In this document: positions 38,301-47,300 of the stretch, in pieces | How positions within the stretch are numbered: position 1 is the stretch's first letter | How the letters are laid out: the number at the start of each line of letters is the position of its first letter | DNA from: Escherichia coli | Lineage (GTDB): Bacteria > Pseudomonadota > Gammaproteobacteria > Enterobacterales > Enterobacteriaceae | DNA length: 64,000 nt | Assembly (NCBI RefSeq): GCF_045037415.1 | Contig: NZ_CP173438.1 | Strand: one strand, 5' to 3' | Program-made: the position numbers

Positions 38301-41300
38301 CCAGTTTTACCGGGGAGTTTCTGAGACTCGGGACGGGGTTTCACACATGGAAAGTTTTTTAATATTTCGTTTTCCATTTCAATTCGTTGTAGCTTTTTCT
38401 TTAGCTCACGTAGTTTGATTTGTTCCGGTGTTATCAGGGAGGCTTTTGGCGTTTACCCTGACGCTCATCACGCAGTTGTTTGAACCATTCCGTCATCGTG
38501 GAAAGACCAACATCCATAGCCTTAGCAGCGTCAGAAACAGTGTAATTTTGATCGACAACCAACTGAGCGGATTCACGTTTGAATTCAGGACTGAAATTTC
38601 TTCTTTTCATAGGTGCACCTGTGTTGTTCTAAGGTGAGCATATCACCCTGTTCAGATGGCCAAATTCAGTAGACCACTTCAGCCCTGAATTCGACTTTTA
38701 CAATGACTTATCTGGACGCATGAAGAACGTCAGAAATATACCAATAATAAGCAATGCGACGGAACCGTAGAATGGTAAACTCCAGTTGCCTGTTTTGTCG
38801 ATAATGATGCCAAAGACGATAGGTGAAATAATGCCGGCGACAGCGGAACCGGCGTTCATCAATCCGCTGGCAATTCCCACATACTTCGGCGTAATATCCA
38901 TCGGGACGGCCCAGATAGGCCCTATGGTCAACTCAAGACAGAAGAACGCCACACTCAGACATATAGTCATAATGAGCAACGAGTCAGTATTTATAACCGG
39001 GACGAGCAGAAATAGTACGGAGATAAAGCTGAAAAGAATGACGTTACGCCGGGCTGCTACTAGATTGCCAGTCATCTTCAGCACTTTGTCGCTGATTACG
39101 CCACCAACCGTATTACCTACTACACCGGACAGAAATACGCCGGCAGTAAAGAGCGCCGATGACTTAAGATCCATGCCGCGACCATGCATAAAGAAAGTTG
39201 GTAACCAAGTAAAAAACAACCAACTTGTCCATCCGTAACAGAAATAAACTCCCATTGTCGGTCCCATTCGTTTTATCAGGGCTCTCCATGGAGTAGGCTC
39301 AGCTTTAACTTTTAGATCTTTTTTCTCGAAAATTGGTACGCCTTCTAGTTCTTCTTCGGTCATACCGCTGTGGTCTCGTGGGTCATCTTTATACGATATG
39401 ATCCAAGATATTAACCAGATAAATGTGACAATAGCCAAACTGATAAATGCGCCACGCCAAGACCAAAATGCCACTAATGCAACAATAATGGGGGGAGTAA
39501 TCGCATTTCCCAAACGAGAGAATGAGTGCGTAACGCCCTGAACAAAGCCACGCTGCTGCGGCTTGAACCAGTAGGTGATCGCTCGCGCCTGAGAAGGCAG
39601 CGCCGCACCTTCCCCTACACCTAATAGCAATCTGGCGAGGAATAGTGATATAAAGCCACCGACGAAACCAGTCGCCATGGTTGCTATAACCCAAATAATG
39701 CCACAAAAAATGATCATGCGGCGTGAGCCAAGTCGATCAACGAACCAGCCACCGATGATTTGAAAAACTGCATAGGTATAAGCAAAAGCAGAAAAAATAA
39801 CGCCGAGTTCTGTATTACTCAGTCCGAGTTCATCTTTAATCAACCCCGCAGTAGCTGATAAGTTTACTCGGTCCACATACATTAGGAATGACATTGCGCA
39901 AAATAGCGCAAGTATCTTGGTTCTGGCTTTTATTTGTAACATTTTTGTCTCCTAAACTAGCGTTAAATTGCTAGTAAATAATGTCAATTAGTTACATATA
40001 TTAGCAACGCCCCAACATTCATCTATTTTTTTACTCTGTAAACCATAATTATAAATAATACGGTTCAACGTGCTTCGAGGGACGCTTTTTGGCTTGTTAT
40101 TCCGCTTTAACCATGGCTTATGGCTAAGGCGGAATAACATAAAAATAACTTCATTCAATAAAATCAAAAAAGAATATATAAATACACTAAGATTTAGAGA
40201 TCTCAATTATCTTTATGCACTGTAGATGCCATTCTAGCTGCAACTGCAATAGCCCGCTCTGTGGCCAGAGTTTTTGCTATTCCCTTGCCTGCAATATCAA
40301 ATGCAGTGCCATGTTCCGGTGTTGTAATAGCAAATGGAAGCCCTGCGGCTACAGTTATGCCCACATCAAAGGAATGAAGCTTGGTGGCAATCTGTCCCTG
40401 GTCATGGAACAGGGTAACGACAGCATCATATTCATGATTAAATGCATGAATAAAAACAGTATCACCCGGTACTGGGCCATACATATCCATCCCTTTCTCG
40501 CGGAAGCCTTCAATGACCGGAATGAGAACATCAATTTCTTCCTTACCACAGGTTCCTCCATCACCGGCATGAGGATTAAGTGCTGCAACCGCTATTCGTG
40601 GATTTTCAACGGCCGCCATACGTAATGTGTCATAGCATAACTGAATCGAACGACTGACATTTTCTGGTGTAATATGGCTGGCAATATCTTTGAATGGAAT
40701 ATGTCCCGTCACGCGAAAAACCCAGAGGTCACCAAGGACATTCAACAGGCCACGAGGTTTATCCAAATATCCTAACTGCTCAGCAAAGAGATAATGTTCG
40801 TCCTCAATATCCCAGCCCCCCTTCTTGAAAGCTTCTTTATTGAGTGGAGCGAAGACAAAACCGTCAATTTTACCTGATTTAAGTAATGACATACAGGTTA
40901 CCAGTGATTCTCCTGTTGCATAACCTGAGTCGGTATCAATGGTGCCCATAGTTAGTTTTTCGGGATTAAAATTTTTCAAATCAAGTAATGGTACATTTCC
41001 CGTAGTCCAGTCAGCTTCAGTGGGATCACTGATGACATTCCACTGAAAATGCACACCAGCAATCTTTTGTCCAAGAGCAAGTACCCGGGCATCGCCAATC
41101 AGAACAGGTCTGCAATATTTATAGACAGTACCATCAGCTACGACTTTGGCAACCAGTTCAGGTCCAATGCCGGCAGCTTCACCTAAAAAAATGCCCAGTA
41201 CTGGTTTACGTTCCATTATTCACCTCTAATTATCAAAAACAGGATTCAGTTTGTTTCCTTATTTCCGGGCAAAACAAATTATGCCCGTAGTTATTACATG

Positions 41301-44300: not shown

Positions 44301-47300
44301 CTCCAATCTATATTTTGAAACTCGAGAGTACACAACCAATTGGCATCAGAACGTGGGTAGGCAAGAAGTTGCCACTCCATAGTTCTGGAGTTGGTAAGGC
44401 TTTATGTGCGTGGTTACCTCAAGACGTCATTGACACATTGTTGCCTGAGGAAACGTTGCCACGATTTACGCAAACAACTATCACTCGTAAATCTGATCTA
44501 ATACAGGAATTTGCACGTATTCGTGAACGTGGATGGGCTTTTGATAACGCAGAGGATTCACCGGGAATTTATTGTATTGCTGCTCCGGTATTTAATCAGA
44601 CTCGTGAAGTAATTGCAGCTATCAGCATTAGTGGCGTGGAAATTCAGATACCTAAAGAAAAAATTGAATATTATTCAACTTTGGTTCTTGATGCGTGTCA
44701 AGAACTATCGGAAAAATTAAAATATATCTGAATTGAATATGTAAGATGTATAGCATCATAATATATGGTATTATATTTTTATGAAAATTAATAGTTTTAT
44801 CTGGCATTTATCAGAGTACGTATATAACAAAGAGAGTGTTTTTCTTTTTAAGCGATGATTTTATTTTATCCTGAACAGTTACTTTCACCTAAGAATATTT
44901 TTATATATTAAGTTGATGTTACCTGCTAACGTCAATATTTTATTGATGGTAGCTAACTTAGTAATTATATAAAAAACTTTTACAATATCCGAGAGTATGT
45001 ATGCATAATGTATGCGCCCCCCTATCAGGCTGTCTCTTATACACAAATCCCCACCCGGGGATTTGTGATGTCTGTCAGTCTGCTTTAGGGGGGACTCTTT
45101 CCATTCGGTAGTTTCCTTCCTCCCCGGCAGCGATTTTTTGAACTTTTTCTTCACCCGTTGATCTTCTCTTATATTTCATTTTCTTCGGGTCTGTTATGGT
45201 ACTTTCTGATTGTTATTCATGGGATAACGAGCAGTTTGGACATGCCCGTCTCGGTGATCCGCGTCGTACACGACGCCTTGTGTCACTGGCCTCTTCTCTC
45301 GCTCAGCATGCAGGTCTTTCTATTGTGAAATCATCCCACTCCACTGCTCAGGTTGAAAGTGCGTACCGCCTGATACGTAACCCGTCTGTGTCCCCGGAAG
45401 CCATTGCCTAAGCCGGATTTACCGCCACTGCAAGGGCATGTGAGGCTCATCCGCTGCTCCTCGCACTGGAAGACACCACCACTAATCGTAAGCGTACAGC
45501 GAGGGCCGTATTGACGGGGATGTGTTATTCAGCTGGCAGTGCTATACGCCACGGAAGCAGTTCGCTGACCCGGTTGACCGGCCAGTCTGCTATGACGCCA
45601 AGCACATGGCGAAGGTAGCTTTCTGGATCCACGTCATTCAGTTTGCACGTCCCGATCAGGCTGTACAGTAGCGCTCCCCGCTCACCACCATGGTCAGAGC
45701 CGAAGAACAGGAAGTTTTTACGACCCAGACTGACCGTCAACGCCACAATCTTTGACTGTTTGACATTGTCATGCCCGCAGGCCAGCGAATCTAAAGACAT
45801 CAGACTGCTTGCATCAGCCAGTTGCGTATCTGGCTATGTCCCTTAATTGGTAAGGGTTCGAGGAACTCAACATTAACGCATTTTTCCGCCCATCACCGGC
45901 AGTGTATATGAACGATTGCACTCTTACGATGGTTGATTTATTTGGTTGCGTAGGGGCTAGCTAGTCTGGTACCGGAGGCTGGATCTGAAGTACTGACCCC
46001 AAGAATAACGCCGGGCAGACTCATATTCTGACCCATTGTCAGCCCGCGTGTTTACTGCTCTAGCTCATTTCCTGTTGTCAGGCGTTCAATTCCCAACTGC
46101 AGGTTATGGCCCGGTGCACAAACACCTGACGGCAGGTATCACTTACCCAAAGAAGATAAAGCCCTCAAGAGGCAGTAACTCTGCCAACCTCTCCTCCGGC
46201 CACTCCGGGCAGACGCGTTAGGACGTCCGTCAGCCAAGCATGTGGCTCCAGACTGCTGTTTCCAGAAGGCTCATTATCTGTGCCGCTCGGTTCCCGGCCA
46301 TCAGTGAACCAGCGAACAACCAGGCCTTTCGTCCCATAACGACCGGACGGATAGCACGCTCGCAGATATTGTTGTGTGTGCCTTGAAATGCACAATCTTT
46401 CCGTCGGTGAAAGTCCGCCCCGACTAACTCTCGCTCCAACTGGAAGGACAGGAAGCGGTCCAGGAGGTAACAAAAGGGCTGAATCTCTCCCTGAAACGAC
46501 TTCTTCAGGAAGTCAATGGGTTATGCGGGCCGTAACGTGAGTGAACACTGAGCAGCCATCGAAATGCCGTCGATGGTGCCGATACGCCACAATAACGGGG
46601 AAGGCCGACGATGACCGGGAAGAGAGTGAGAAAGGCATCGGTCATACCCACCGGGGTAGTGGTGTCAGCATGCATAACAATTGATCGATCGTGCAACAAG
46701 AGAAGTCCATAACGATGCCTGTCCGGGTGACGGGCAACAACGCCTCCCGAGGGGGTGAATCGGTTGTTATGGATGGCAGATGGGGTGTAGTAGTGAAAAT
46801 ACTGAGTAATGTCATAGGAGCGAAGGCCCCCTGTTGCAGTACCAGTGTAACATGCAGGAAGAGCCCGGGGATTGCCATCAGCCTCACAACCCCGCTCGAA
46901 CCGGTTCAGAACCTACAGAAAATACTACAGGAGAAAGCAAAGTGAACCTCCCCGTGTTTCCTGTTTATCATTTTCTGGTCAGTGCCGCGATTCTGGTATT
47001 CGTGGTGATTTTCTGGCGGACACACCATCGCGACCACCGTAACTGGCTGGCTCTACGGCTATTCGTATTATGCTCTGTAAACCGTTGGCCATTGCGGATG
47101 GTTAAAGGAACAATAGGTGCTAATAAATCTCGAGTTTTTAACTCAGCGATATTACGTTCACCAAGCGCTGCAAAAAGATTATCTTCAAGACTTTTTAGCA
47201 CACGATGGGCGTGATCTTCAGACCACTTTTTATTGGTGCCATGCCACTCAATCGCGACTTCTTTAAAGGTTCGTGCTTTACTCTGTTCAACCTTATCATT

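Follow-up and report, generated by a model that had tools for sequence, protein, structure and literature searches.

A putative IclR-controlled sugar-acid operon with a pocket-altered PdxA-like gene beside leuX in Escherichia coli

We analysed a 64,000-nucleotide stretch of Escherichia coli DNA (contig NZ_CP173438.1 of RefSeq assembly GCF_045037415.1; the whole stretch is called the window below) in which an operon of four minus-strand genes and a divergent regulator gene lie beside leuX. The initial annotation, made from the sequence alone, had placed there a major facilitator superfamily (MFS) transporter, a PdxA-family dehydrogenase, a UxaA/GarD-family dehydratase, a DapA-family enzyme and an IclR regulator, and five intact open reading frames (ORFs) with matching NCBIfam profiles confirmed both these families and their positions. 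The features of the cluster are the following.

38698-39942, minus strand: MFS permease of the anion:cation symporter (ACS) type, D-galactonate transporter subfamily, 414 amino acids (ORF; TIGR00893, 3e-72)
39943-40202, no strand: AT-rich spacer of 260 bp between the PdxA-like gene and the permease gene, the junction at which transporter cassettes are swapped
40203-41216, minus strand: PdxA-like gene, 337 amino acids (ORF; PF04166; NCBIfam PdxA, 2e-85)
41294-42811, minus strand: dehydratase of the UxaA/GarD superfamily, 505 amino acids, with SAF and GD_AH domains (ORF; NCBIfam galactarate dehydratase model, 8e-121)
42828-43727, minus strand: predicted class I aldolase of the DHDPS/NAL family, 299 amino acids (ORF; NCBIfam DapA/NAL, 2e-53)
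43728-43966, no strand: divergent control region (cross-species alignment)
43967-44731, plus strand: IclR-family regulator, 254 amino acids (ORF 43895-44731; NCBIfam, 7e-53; RefSeq start)

None of the five proteins passed an NCBIfam equivalog cut-off in the profile search. The absence of a DUF1537 kinase, noted initially, was confirmed: tblastn with E. coli YgbK against the whole window returned no match. Equivalents of GarL, GarR and GarK were not found among the ORFs and annotation of the cluster, and blastp with GarL and GarR gave no match. With these genes missing, and with a dehydratase that is not of the IlvD/Edd type, the claim that the cluster corresponds neither to gar/gud nor to yjhIHGF held as well.

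The PdxA-like protein contains PF04166 (detected on the identical protein P0001) and is about 32% identical to E. coli PdxA. Its matches in the PDB were 4jqp (6e-63), PdxA2 (1.5e-50), PdxA (5e-43) and TphB (4aty, 7e-27), and its equivalog scores stayed under the cut-offs (287 versus 470, 255.5 versus 290.35, and 199 versus 583 for D-threonate-4-phosphate dehydrogenase). The metal-site residues His166, His211 and His266, together with Asp247, Asp267 and Lys274, are kept in this protein and in 119 of 119 homologues. The pocket has changed: EDEH stands in place of xGHT at 134-137, N283 is replaced by T, R292 by I and S294 by T. The canonical pocket residues are retained by E. coli PdxA, Salmonella PdxA2, the D-threonate-4-phosphate dehydrogenase 6e85 and 4jqp. 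We found the altered signature in all 119 close homologues and in all 80 genomic loci (199 relatives), the uniformity of the 80 loci being partly by construction because they were retrieved with peptide patterns of this very subfamily. T137, N283 and R292 of PdxA are, going by its structure and UniProt entry, contacts to the phosphorylated substrate. The one role confirmed in a published paper is that of His136, which hydrogen-bonds the substrate in PdxA. Members of the subfamily occur in Firmicutes, Spirochaetes, Proteobacteria and metagenome-assembled genomes (MAGs) of Asgard archaea; two Lokiarchaeota MAG contigs (L032 and L059) carry pocket-altered members that are about 44-50% identical.

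With the phosphate-contact residues replaced throughout the subfamily, a missing kinase is expected and not anomalous. The initial annotation had presented a PdxA-family gene without its kinase as an odd combination; the absence was real, and the oddness is explained by the replaced residues. Most likely, judging from these replacements, the subfamily acts on unphosphorylated acids. A DUF1537 gene lay within 10 kb of the PdxA-like gene in 8 of 92 loci, in none of those from Enterobacterales, and the loci that have one also encode a second, canonical PdxA beside the kinase (scored in L050, at 357 bits and above the cut-off). It is very unlikely that the protein still takes a phosphorylated four-carbon acid sugar as PdxA2 does, with a kinase acting in trans such as YgbK/OtnK of the core genome. 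Such an arrangement would be in keeping with the presence of ygbK elsewhere in E. coli, with the PdxA and D-threonate-4-phosphate dehydrogenase models as best NCBIfam matches and with DUF1537 near a few subfamily members. However, every equivalog cut-off was missed, the Arg, Asn, Thr and Ser of enzymes with phosphorylated substrates are replaced and an acidic E-D-E motif is found instead, and the DUF1537 proteins encoded nearby have a natural partner of their own in the canonical PdxA.

The dehydratase shares 36% of its residues with GarD and 32% with UxaA, and GarD (PDB 6u7l, 2e-99) was its closest homologue that is both solved and characterised. It scored below the GarD equivalog cut-off (404 bits versus 731) but has the domains of the superfamily, with PF08666, PF04295 and PF20629 (SAF and GD_AH) on the identical protein P0121. 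Cys132, Cys167, Cys202 and Cys270 are conserved and match the Fe-ligand set of the superfamily (Watanabe 2019, PMC6336799), which includes D-arabinonate, D-idonate, L-fuconate and L-galactonate dehydratases (PMC6336799). Relatives at 62-66% identity were abundant, some of them named arabinonate dehydratase by JGI, and a comparison with YjhG, which is of the IlvD/Edd type, gave no match. By these comparisons the enzyme appears to group with the UxaA/GarD-type aldonate dehydratases.

For the DapA-family protein the best PDB match was YagE (1e-86), about 44 orders of magnitude ahead of the next family, DapA (1e-42). The protein is 44% identical to YjhH and has the Schiff-base lysine, Lys165, in a GIKDT motif. 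We considered KdgD as an identity for it and ruled this out, since the hidden Markov model scores lay far under the cut-offs (TIGR03249, 112 versus 374 bits; NF002958, 118 versus 278). The closeness to YagE and YjhH, the low KdgD score and the Schiff-base lysine argue for an aldolase and not for the decarboxylating dehydratase of the aldarate route, and the protein is predicted to be a YagE/YjhH-like 2-keto-3-deoxy sugar-acid aldolase.

The regulator gave its NCBIfam matches with BhcR (7e-53) and KdgR (6e-42), both under the cut-offs; it is 33% identical to YjhI, and the ratio of non-synonymous to synonymous substitution rates (dN/dS) was 0.02-0.03. Its start is most likely the ATG at 43967, which is the RefSeq start in identical genomes and gives the same length of 254 amino acids as the Citrobacter werkmanii orthologue; the alternative is a GTG at 43895. 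When the control region was aligned with the intergenic regions of Hafnia, C. werkmanii and E. coli 300033, a short palindrome, GAACT-N3-GTTC at 43754-43765, and a TTGACA-like block near 43805-43810 were invariant. The palindrome is a candidate IclR operator. A generic promoter and terminator scan gave nothing above chance, and an inverted-repeat search of the control region found none, although the alignment shows the short palindrome.

Of 5426 complete E. coli genomes, 393 (about 7%) carry the whole cluster, on the chromosome and in nearly all cases at 99% identity or more. The 100%-identical copies come from clinical isolates whose strain names suggest the lineage of sequence type 131 (ST131). 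About 1100 further complete E. coli genomes, including K-12 and BL21, hold just the 3'-terminal 238 bp of the permease gene. This stub (window 38698-38935) is 96% identical to the cluster copy and corresponds in K-12 to the pseudogene yjhE beside IS911B; window 38403-38935 aligned to the yjhE/IS911B junction of K-12 at 90% identity. Since only this 3' stub remains, K-12 has lost the operon.

The module of DHDPS-family, UxaA-like and PdxA-like genes with a transporter and an IclR regulator was also found in Hafnia alvei, Citrobacter portucalensis and C. youngae. Its chromosomal sites there are unrelated, and the PdxA-like protein is 93% (H. alvei) and 83% (both Citrobacter) identical to the window copy; close homologues occur further in Salmonella and Klebsiella oxytoca. 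Against the Hafnia and C. werkmanii orthologues, dN/dS was 0.02-0.07 for the four conserved genes, the PdxA-like gene being the most constrained (0.03); values as low as these indicate that the ORFs are not chance and that the four conserved genes have been under strong purifying selection. The transporters have been exchanged: GntP permeases are found in Hafnia and two Citrobacter, a second ACS-type MFS in C. werkmanii and E. coli 300033, and a third MFS in the ST131-type operon. In E. coli 300033 the alignment with the window starts just 18 bp within the 3' end of the PdxA-like gene, and on the far side of that point the genome carries the different ACS-type MFS and an amidohydrolase_2 gene. 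The amidohydrolase_2 (PF04909, 2e-36; lactonase-like, with weak similarity to L-fucono-1,5-lactonase) ends the operon in E. coli 300033, in C. werkmanii and in a Desulfovibrio MAG. This alternative 3' end lies at 6456-8687 of L098 (E. coli 300033) and at 7201-9513 of L015 (C. werkmanii). The ST131-type operon of the window is without amidohydrolase_2, and its permease gene borders directly on an IS911 fragment; amidohydrolase_2 is likewise missing from the operons of Hafnia and the other Citrobacter.

These data bear on the possibility that the operon is decaying in this lineage and no longer functions, which we regard as very unlikely. The island is full of insertion sequence (IS) fragments, K-12 and about 1100 other genomes are down to the permease stub, and the window operon is without the lactonase-like gene of the fuller versions and has its permease gene next to an IS911 fragment. 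On the other hand, all five frames are intact and at least 99% identical across some 395 genomes, the operons of Hafnia and other Citrobacter do without amidohydrolase_2 too, and the long-term dN/dS is low, though it does not measure recent decay.

The permease is 30% identical to GarP, its best K-12 match, 26% to ExuT, and 34-36% to the MFS proteins encoded beside the closest non-enterobacterial PdxA-like genes; it is predicted to be an ACS-type importer of organic acids. The composition of related clusters was informative about the remaining steps. A core of DHDPS-family, UxaA-like and MFS genes stands by itself in a Neisseria sp., and in a Serratia sp. the core is accompanied by IclR and an Fe-alcohol dehydrogenase (GldA-like; 509 bits on the glycerol dehydrogenase subfamily, on which a GldA-like partner was also scored at 514 bits, and a match to the glycolaldehyde reductase model as well); both lack the PdxA-like gene. 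C. portucalensis has the GldA-like reductase and the PdxA-like gene together. That Serratia and Neisseria have the core but not the PdxA-like gene marks the latter as an add-on to a self-sufficient dehydratase/aldolase core, and the GldA-like reductase and GntP permeases of the sister clusters point to a neutral hydroxyaldehyde as product and an aldonate as substrate.

The initial annotation had taken the pairing of dehydratase and DapA-family enzyme as the arrangement for aldarate breakdown. In such a route a hexarate (galactarate or glucarate) would be converted to 5-keto-4-deoxy-glucarate, on which the DapA-family protein would act either as a KdgD-like dehydratase/decarboxylase or as an aldolase yielding pyruvate and tartronate semialdehyde; the PdxA-like protein would then act on tartronate semialdehyde, hydroxypyruvate or glycerate, or would decarboxylate an aldarate. 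GarD as closest characterised homologue of the dehydratase and GarP as best K-12 match of the permease are in line with this, and PdxA-like genes elsewhere occur with TctABC transporters of the dicarboxylate type and in some cases with glycerate kinase, a 2-hydroxyacid dehydrogenase and a GarR-like reductase. We nevertheless consider the aldarate route distinctly unlikely. The scores on the KdgD and GarD models are too low, YagE and YjhH are by far the closest relatives of the aldolase, the GntP permeases and the GldA-like reductases of neutral aldehydes in sister clusters fit it poorly, and the cluster has no equivalents of GarL, GarR and GarK. In addition, garD was found in 5361 of 5426 E. 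coli genomes (98.8%), and being near-universal it would make a second galactarate route redundant.

The loci of the PdxA-like subfamily fell into four types of neighbourhood. Type I, about 40 of the 80 loci and found in Firmicutes and Spirochaetes, combines a sigma-54 regulator, the PdxA-like gene, TctABC and TIM-barrel isomerases with an Asp/Glu-racemase-like protein and a split transketolase; some of these loci add a glycerate kinase, a 2-hydroxyacid dehydrogenase and a tartronate-semialdehyde-reductase-like (GarR-like) protein of 452 bits. Type II (about 10 loci, from Halomonadaceae and relatives) consists of GntR, a TRAP transporter, the PdxA-like gene, an enolase-superfamily dehydratase and an FAH-family protein of the AraD1/GguC type (528 bits). 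The dehydratase of type II matched PDB 3stp, 3sqs and 3ssz at 1e-185 and has Lys177-x-Arg179 and His316, reportedly the residues of L-lyxonate dehydratase (LyxD). FAH-family proteins of the AraD1/GguC type are 2-keto-3-deoxypentonate (KDP) dehydratases. Type III, found in Ruminiclostridium-type loci, has an ABC transporter, the PdxA-like gene, a nickel-pincer isomerase, DUF1537 and a canonical PdxA, and type IV is the enterobacterial arrangement, also present in the Desulfovibrio MAG with 73% identity of the PdxA-like protein. In every version from Enterobacterales the PdxA-like gene lies inside the operon, between dehydratase and permease. A Bacillota MAG combines the PdxA-like gene and a UxaA-like dehydratase with a DmpG/DmpF aldolase-dehydrogenase pair. 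Two PdxA-family genes per operon, with a nickel-pincer (LarA-like) isomerase and DUF1537 between them, were seen in the Ruminiclostridium-type loci L021 and L030 (both at about 10.0-14.5 kb), L025 (about 2.4-7.5 kb) and L028 (about 2.9-7.5 kb); one of the two belongs to the pocket-altered subfamily and the second is presumed to be canonical.

The PdxA-like gene thus recurs with acid-sugar dehydratases of two unrelated families and with keto-deoxy-acid enzymes of three. These architectures share only the intermediates at or before the 2-keto-3-deoxy acid, which places the PdxA-like step upstream. Identity between the amidohydrolase_2 of the enterobacterial-type operons and the amidohydrolases of five type II loci is 38-48%, and the same partner in enterobacterial and Halomonas-type clusters is further support for an upstream step. 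The strongest rival explanation is that the operon joins two metabolically unlinked modules under one regulator and permease, namely a dehydratase and aldolase for one aldonate (D-arabinonate, L-fuconate or L-galactonate, for example) and a stand-alone PdxA-like oxidative decarboxylase that takes a related unphosphorylated acid straight to a ketose or a central metabolite, turning for example a tetronate into dihydroxyacetone or tartrate or D-malate into a three-carbon acid. It owes its strength to how often the subfamily occurs as a minimal unit of regulator, PdxA-like gene and transporter, its most frequent context (about 40 of 80 loci). The nearest non-enterobacterial relatives, in Megasphaera and a Negativicutes MAG, have an MFS gene and the PdxA-like gene alone, the core of Serratia and Neisseria does without the PdxA-like gene, and PdxA2 and TphB carry out oxidative decarboxylation in one step. 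Against it, recurrence with three non-homologous sets of dehydratase and keto-deoxy-acid enzymes and with a shared amidohydrolase_2 would be improbable if the modules were unrelated, and the gene sits within the operon in every Enterobacterales version. On these grounds we consider two separate modules unlikely.

The reading that we favour, and to which we give about half of our confidence, is that the operon serves the non-phosphorylative catabolism of an imported sugar acid under IclR control, with the PdxA-like enzyme acting upstream of the dehydratase and the aldolase. The data show the families, the altered pocket, the missing kinase, the conservation and the recurrent gene neighbours; we infer in what order the steps run, which kind of reaction the PdxA-like enzyme carries out and what the substrate is. 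The regulator would control the divergent promoter region and the permease would import an organic acid. The PdxA-like enzyme, as a metal- and NAD-dependent beta-hydroxyacid dehydrogenase/decarboxylase, would convert this unphosphorylated acid into an aldonate by decarboxylation, redox rearrangement or both; the decarboxylation and redox chemistry of PdxA2, TphB and tartrate dehydrogenase is the model for this step. In the fuller operons the amidohydrolase_2-type lactonase, absent from the window operon, may assist at this stage. The UxaA/GarD-type dehydratase would form a 2-keto-3-deoxy acid from the aldonate and the YagE/YjhH-like aldolase would split it into pyruvate and a small hydroxyaldehyde. 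This aldehyde, most likely glycolaldehyde, would be disposed of by housekeeping enzymes.

Three further roles of the PdxA-like enzyme were considered and set aside. Action on the aldehyde released by the aldolase was ruled out because the Halomonas-type clusters keep the PdxA-like gene without an aldolase, and a role as aldose 1-dehydrogenase because all associated transporters are of the carboxylate type. A KDP 4-dehydrogenase is unlikely, as no diketo-acid hydrolase accompanies the gene and the FAH partners are KDP dehydratases.

Several points weigh against the favoured reading, in addition to the retrieval of the 80 loci by subfamily patterns and the assumed roles of most pocket contacts mentioned above. 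DHDPS-family proteins may also be L-KDP dehydratases. The PdxA-like clade of Enterobacterales is 53-60% identical to Firmicutes members and 42-45% to those of the Halomonas type; the Firmicutes members have TctABC, TIM-barrel isomerases and a split transketolase and no dehydratase, and with the enterobacterial clade nearer to them a transfer of substrate across clades is risky. With GntP in Hafnia and other Citrobacter and no amidohydrolase_2 in ST131, the upper pathway may differ or be incomplete. In two type II loci the TRAP proteins resemble E. coli YiaMNO, by annotation a 2,3-diketo-L-gulonate transporter, with identities of 61-62% for YiaN and 46-51% for YiaO; the ligand is taken from that annotation, and 46-51% identity of a solute-binding protein does not fix it.

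A candidate substrate that we regard as rather unlikely is an oxidation product of vitamin C (2,3-diketo-L-gulonate, 2-carboxy-L-pentonate or their lactones) that would give L-xylonate. Its weakness lies in the closeness of the clade to Firmicutes, the annotation-based ligand of YiaMNO and the lack of the amidohydrolase in ST131. In its favour are the YiaMNO-like TRAP proteins of the two type II loci. LyxD reportedly takes L-lyxonate (Ghasempur 2014). Diketogulonate, according to a plant-science review, rearranges to 2-carboxy-L-pentonate and epimeric lactones, and loss of one carboxyl yields the C2 epimers L-lyxonate and L-xylonate (PMC11066805); a lactonase and a decarboxylating PdxA-type enzyme, with a stereospecific pentonate dehydratase after them, would be in keeping with these reactions. 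All characterised UxaA/GarD enzymes use acids that are configured at C2/C3 like D-arabinonate (PMC6336799), as by stereochemical reasoning L-xylonate is too, and L-xylonate is among the five-carbon acids of non-phosphorylative pathways listed alongside AraC-, XylC- and UxaA-type dehydratases (Watanabe 2026). In E. coli, decarboxylation to L-xylonate would then be followed by dehydration to L-2-keto-3-deoxypentonate (L-KDP) and cleavage to pyruvate and glycolaldehyde. Quite doubtful is the broader proposal that the PdxA-like subfamily and amidohydrolase_2 form the missing bacterial system for oxidised vitamin C, yielding both L-xylonate and L-lyxonate; in E. coli ST131, Hafnia, Citrobacter and Salmonella the system would supply an L-xylonate dehydratase of a new, UxaA-like type and, after it, an L-KDP aldolase. 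A YiaK reductase was found in none of the PdxA-like loci searched. In the Halomonas-type clusters of L078 (10268-16449) and L088 (5876-10778), two or three paralogous YiaO-like binding proteins are encoded beside one YiaN-like membrane subunit, which suggests uptake of several related acids.

The surroundings of the cluster are those of an island at leuX strewn with insertion sequence debris, as the initial annotation had described; RefSeq annotation and an ARAGORN call of tRNA-Leu(CAA) bore this out. The flanking IS911, IS4/Tn5 and IS66 fragments and the truncated integrase are annotated in identical genomes in RefSeq. The boundaries are the following.

38357-38610, minus strand: remnant of an IS911-type transposase, which bounds the cluster distally (annotated in an identical genome in RefSeq)
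45196-45483, plus strand: IS4/Tn5-family transposase fragment, followed by IS66 fragments, the proximal boundary (RefSeq annotation, ORFs)
about 47097-47558: truncated integrase beside leuX (RefSeq annotation)
47745-47829, minus strand: tRNA-Leu(CAA) leuX, the integration site of the island (ARAGORN, RefSeq annotation)

Further out, a DeoR regulator, a ribokinase-like kinase, a FucP-like permease and an aldose 1-epimerase lie at about 29368-33745 (coordinates carried over from the annotation of strain H105); these genes resemble deoQKPX, the locus with which pathogenic E. coli use deoxyribose. A complete IS66-family element (ISEc23-like, with tnpA, tnpB and transposase) at 34016-36432 separates them from the cluster, with a second IS66 TnpA fragment at 36770-37006. 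Between the IS66 element and the cluster, at 37206-38105 on the minus strand, is a truncated IIC gene of the phosphotransferase system ascorbate family (sgcC-like), whose N-terminus is missing according to the annotation of identical genomes. On the other side, a phosphoethanolamine-transferase fragment and the truncated P4-type integrase (46957-47558) adjoin leuX; strain H105 has an extra ISEc52 between integrase and leuX that the window does not have.

The PdxA-like gene is routinely mis-annotated as a vitamin B6 enzyme. Assigning a function to the subfamily would correct thousands of annotations and add a reaction type to sugar-acid catabolism, and the operon could mark a lineage-specific nutrient niche of a pandemic pathogen. 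If the substrate were a vitamin-C product, a pandemic urinary and gut pathogen would grow on breakdown products of ascorbate, which are abundant in urine and plant food. The K-12 pseudogene yjhE is explained as the last remnant of the operon.

Full-text literature searches returned no paper describing the cluster or its combination of genes; a 2026 paper on BEN2908 concerns a different cluster with PdxA2 and DUF1537, and a 2026 paper on the metabolism of extraintestinal pathogenic E. coli another one, for apiose, near ent. Non-phosphorylative sugar-acid pathways are already a known type, and what is new here is a member of a large PdxA subfamily without an assigned function. The PdxA-like protein shares its fold and the His, Asp and Lys residues with PdxA of B6 synthesis and with PdxA2 of the D-threonate pathway, in which DUF1537 (DtnK) takes part; it differs from them in the absence of a kinase, the replaced substrate and phosphate contacts and the curated cut-offs that it misses. 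TphB, also of the PdxA family, and tartrate dehydrogenase/decarboxylase are decarboxylating dehydrogenases of unphosphorylated alpha,beta-dihydroxy acids, as proposed for the PdxA-like enzyme, but they are distant in sequence, take aromatic or four-carbon substrates and have no gene link to a dehydratase or aldolase.

In the gar/gud and KdgD routes, GarD is homologous to the cluster dehydratase and KdgD likewise belongs to the DHDPS superfamily; this canonical pathway is encoded in the core genome. The closest analogues of the cluster are yjhIHGF of K-12 and the non-phosphorylative L-fucose locus of Campylobacter jejuni and Veillonella (cj0480c-cj0490). The fucose locus reportedly combines IclR, a DapA-like aldolase, a UxaA-type dehydratase and an MFS permease and yields pyruvate and a hydroxyaldehyde; it is said to start from the sugar, with a sugar 1-dehydrogenase, a lactonase and an aldehyde dehydrogenase, and to have no PdxA-family enzyme. 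The D-arabinonate dehydratase C785_RS13685 and the D-idonate dehydratase (PMC6336799) have the superfamily and the four cysteines in common with the cluster dehydratase; in Herbaspirillum the dehydratase product goes to alpha-ketoglutarate or glycolate and not to an aldolase (PMC6336799). As to the L-lyxonate (LyxD) clusters of Pseudomonas aeruginosa and Halomonadaceae, the latter pair the PdxA-like subfamily and amidohydrolase_2 with a pentonate dehydratase but differ in an enolase-type dehydratase, a Weimberg-like FAH-type KDP dehydratase, a TRAP transporter and a PdxA-like protein that is just 42-45% identical. The yjhIHGF and yagEF genes for D-xylonate in K-12, of the Dahms type, have the same layout of IclR, DHDPS-family aldolase, acid-sugar dehydratase and permease, in the same leuX island, a parallel that the initial annotation did not mention. 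Compared with yjhIHGF, the cluster has a UxaA/GarD-type dehydratase where YjhG is of the IlvD/Edd type, an MFS permease where theirs is GntP, and an extra PdxA-family gene, and the configuration of its substrate is probably a different one.

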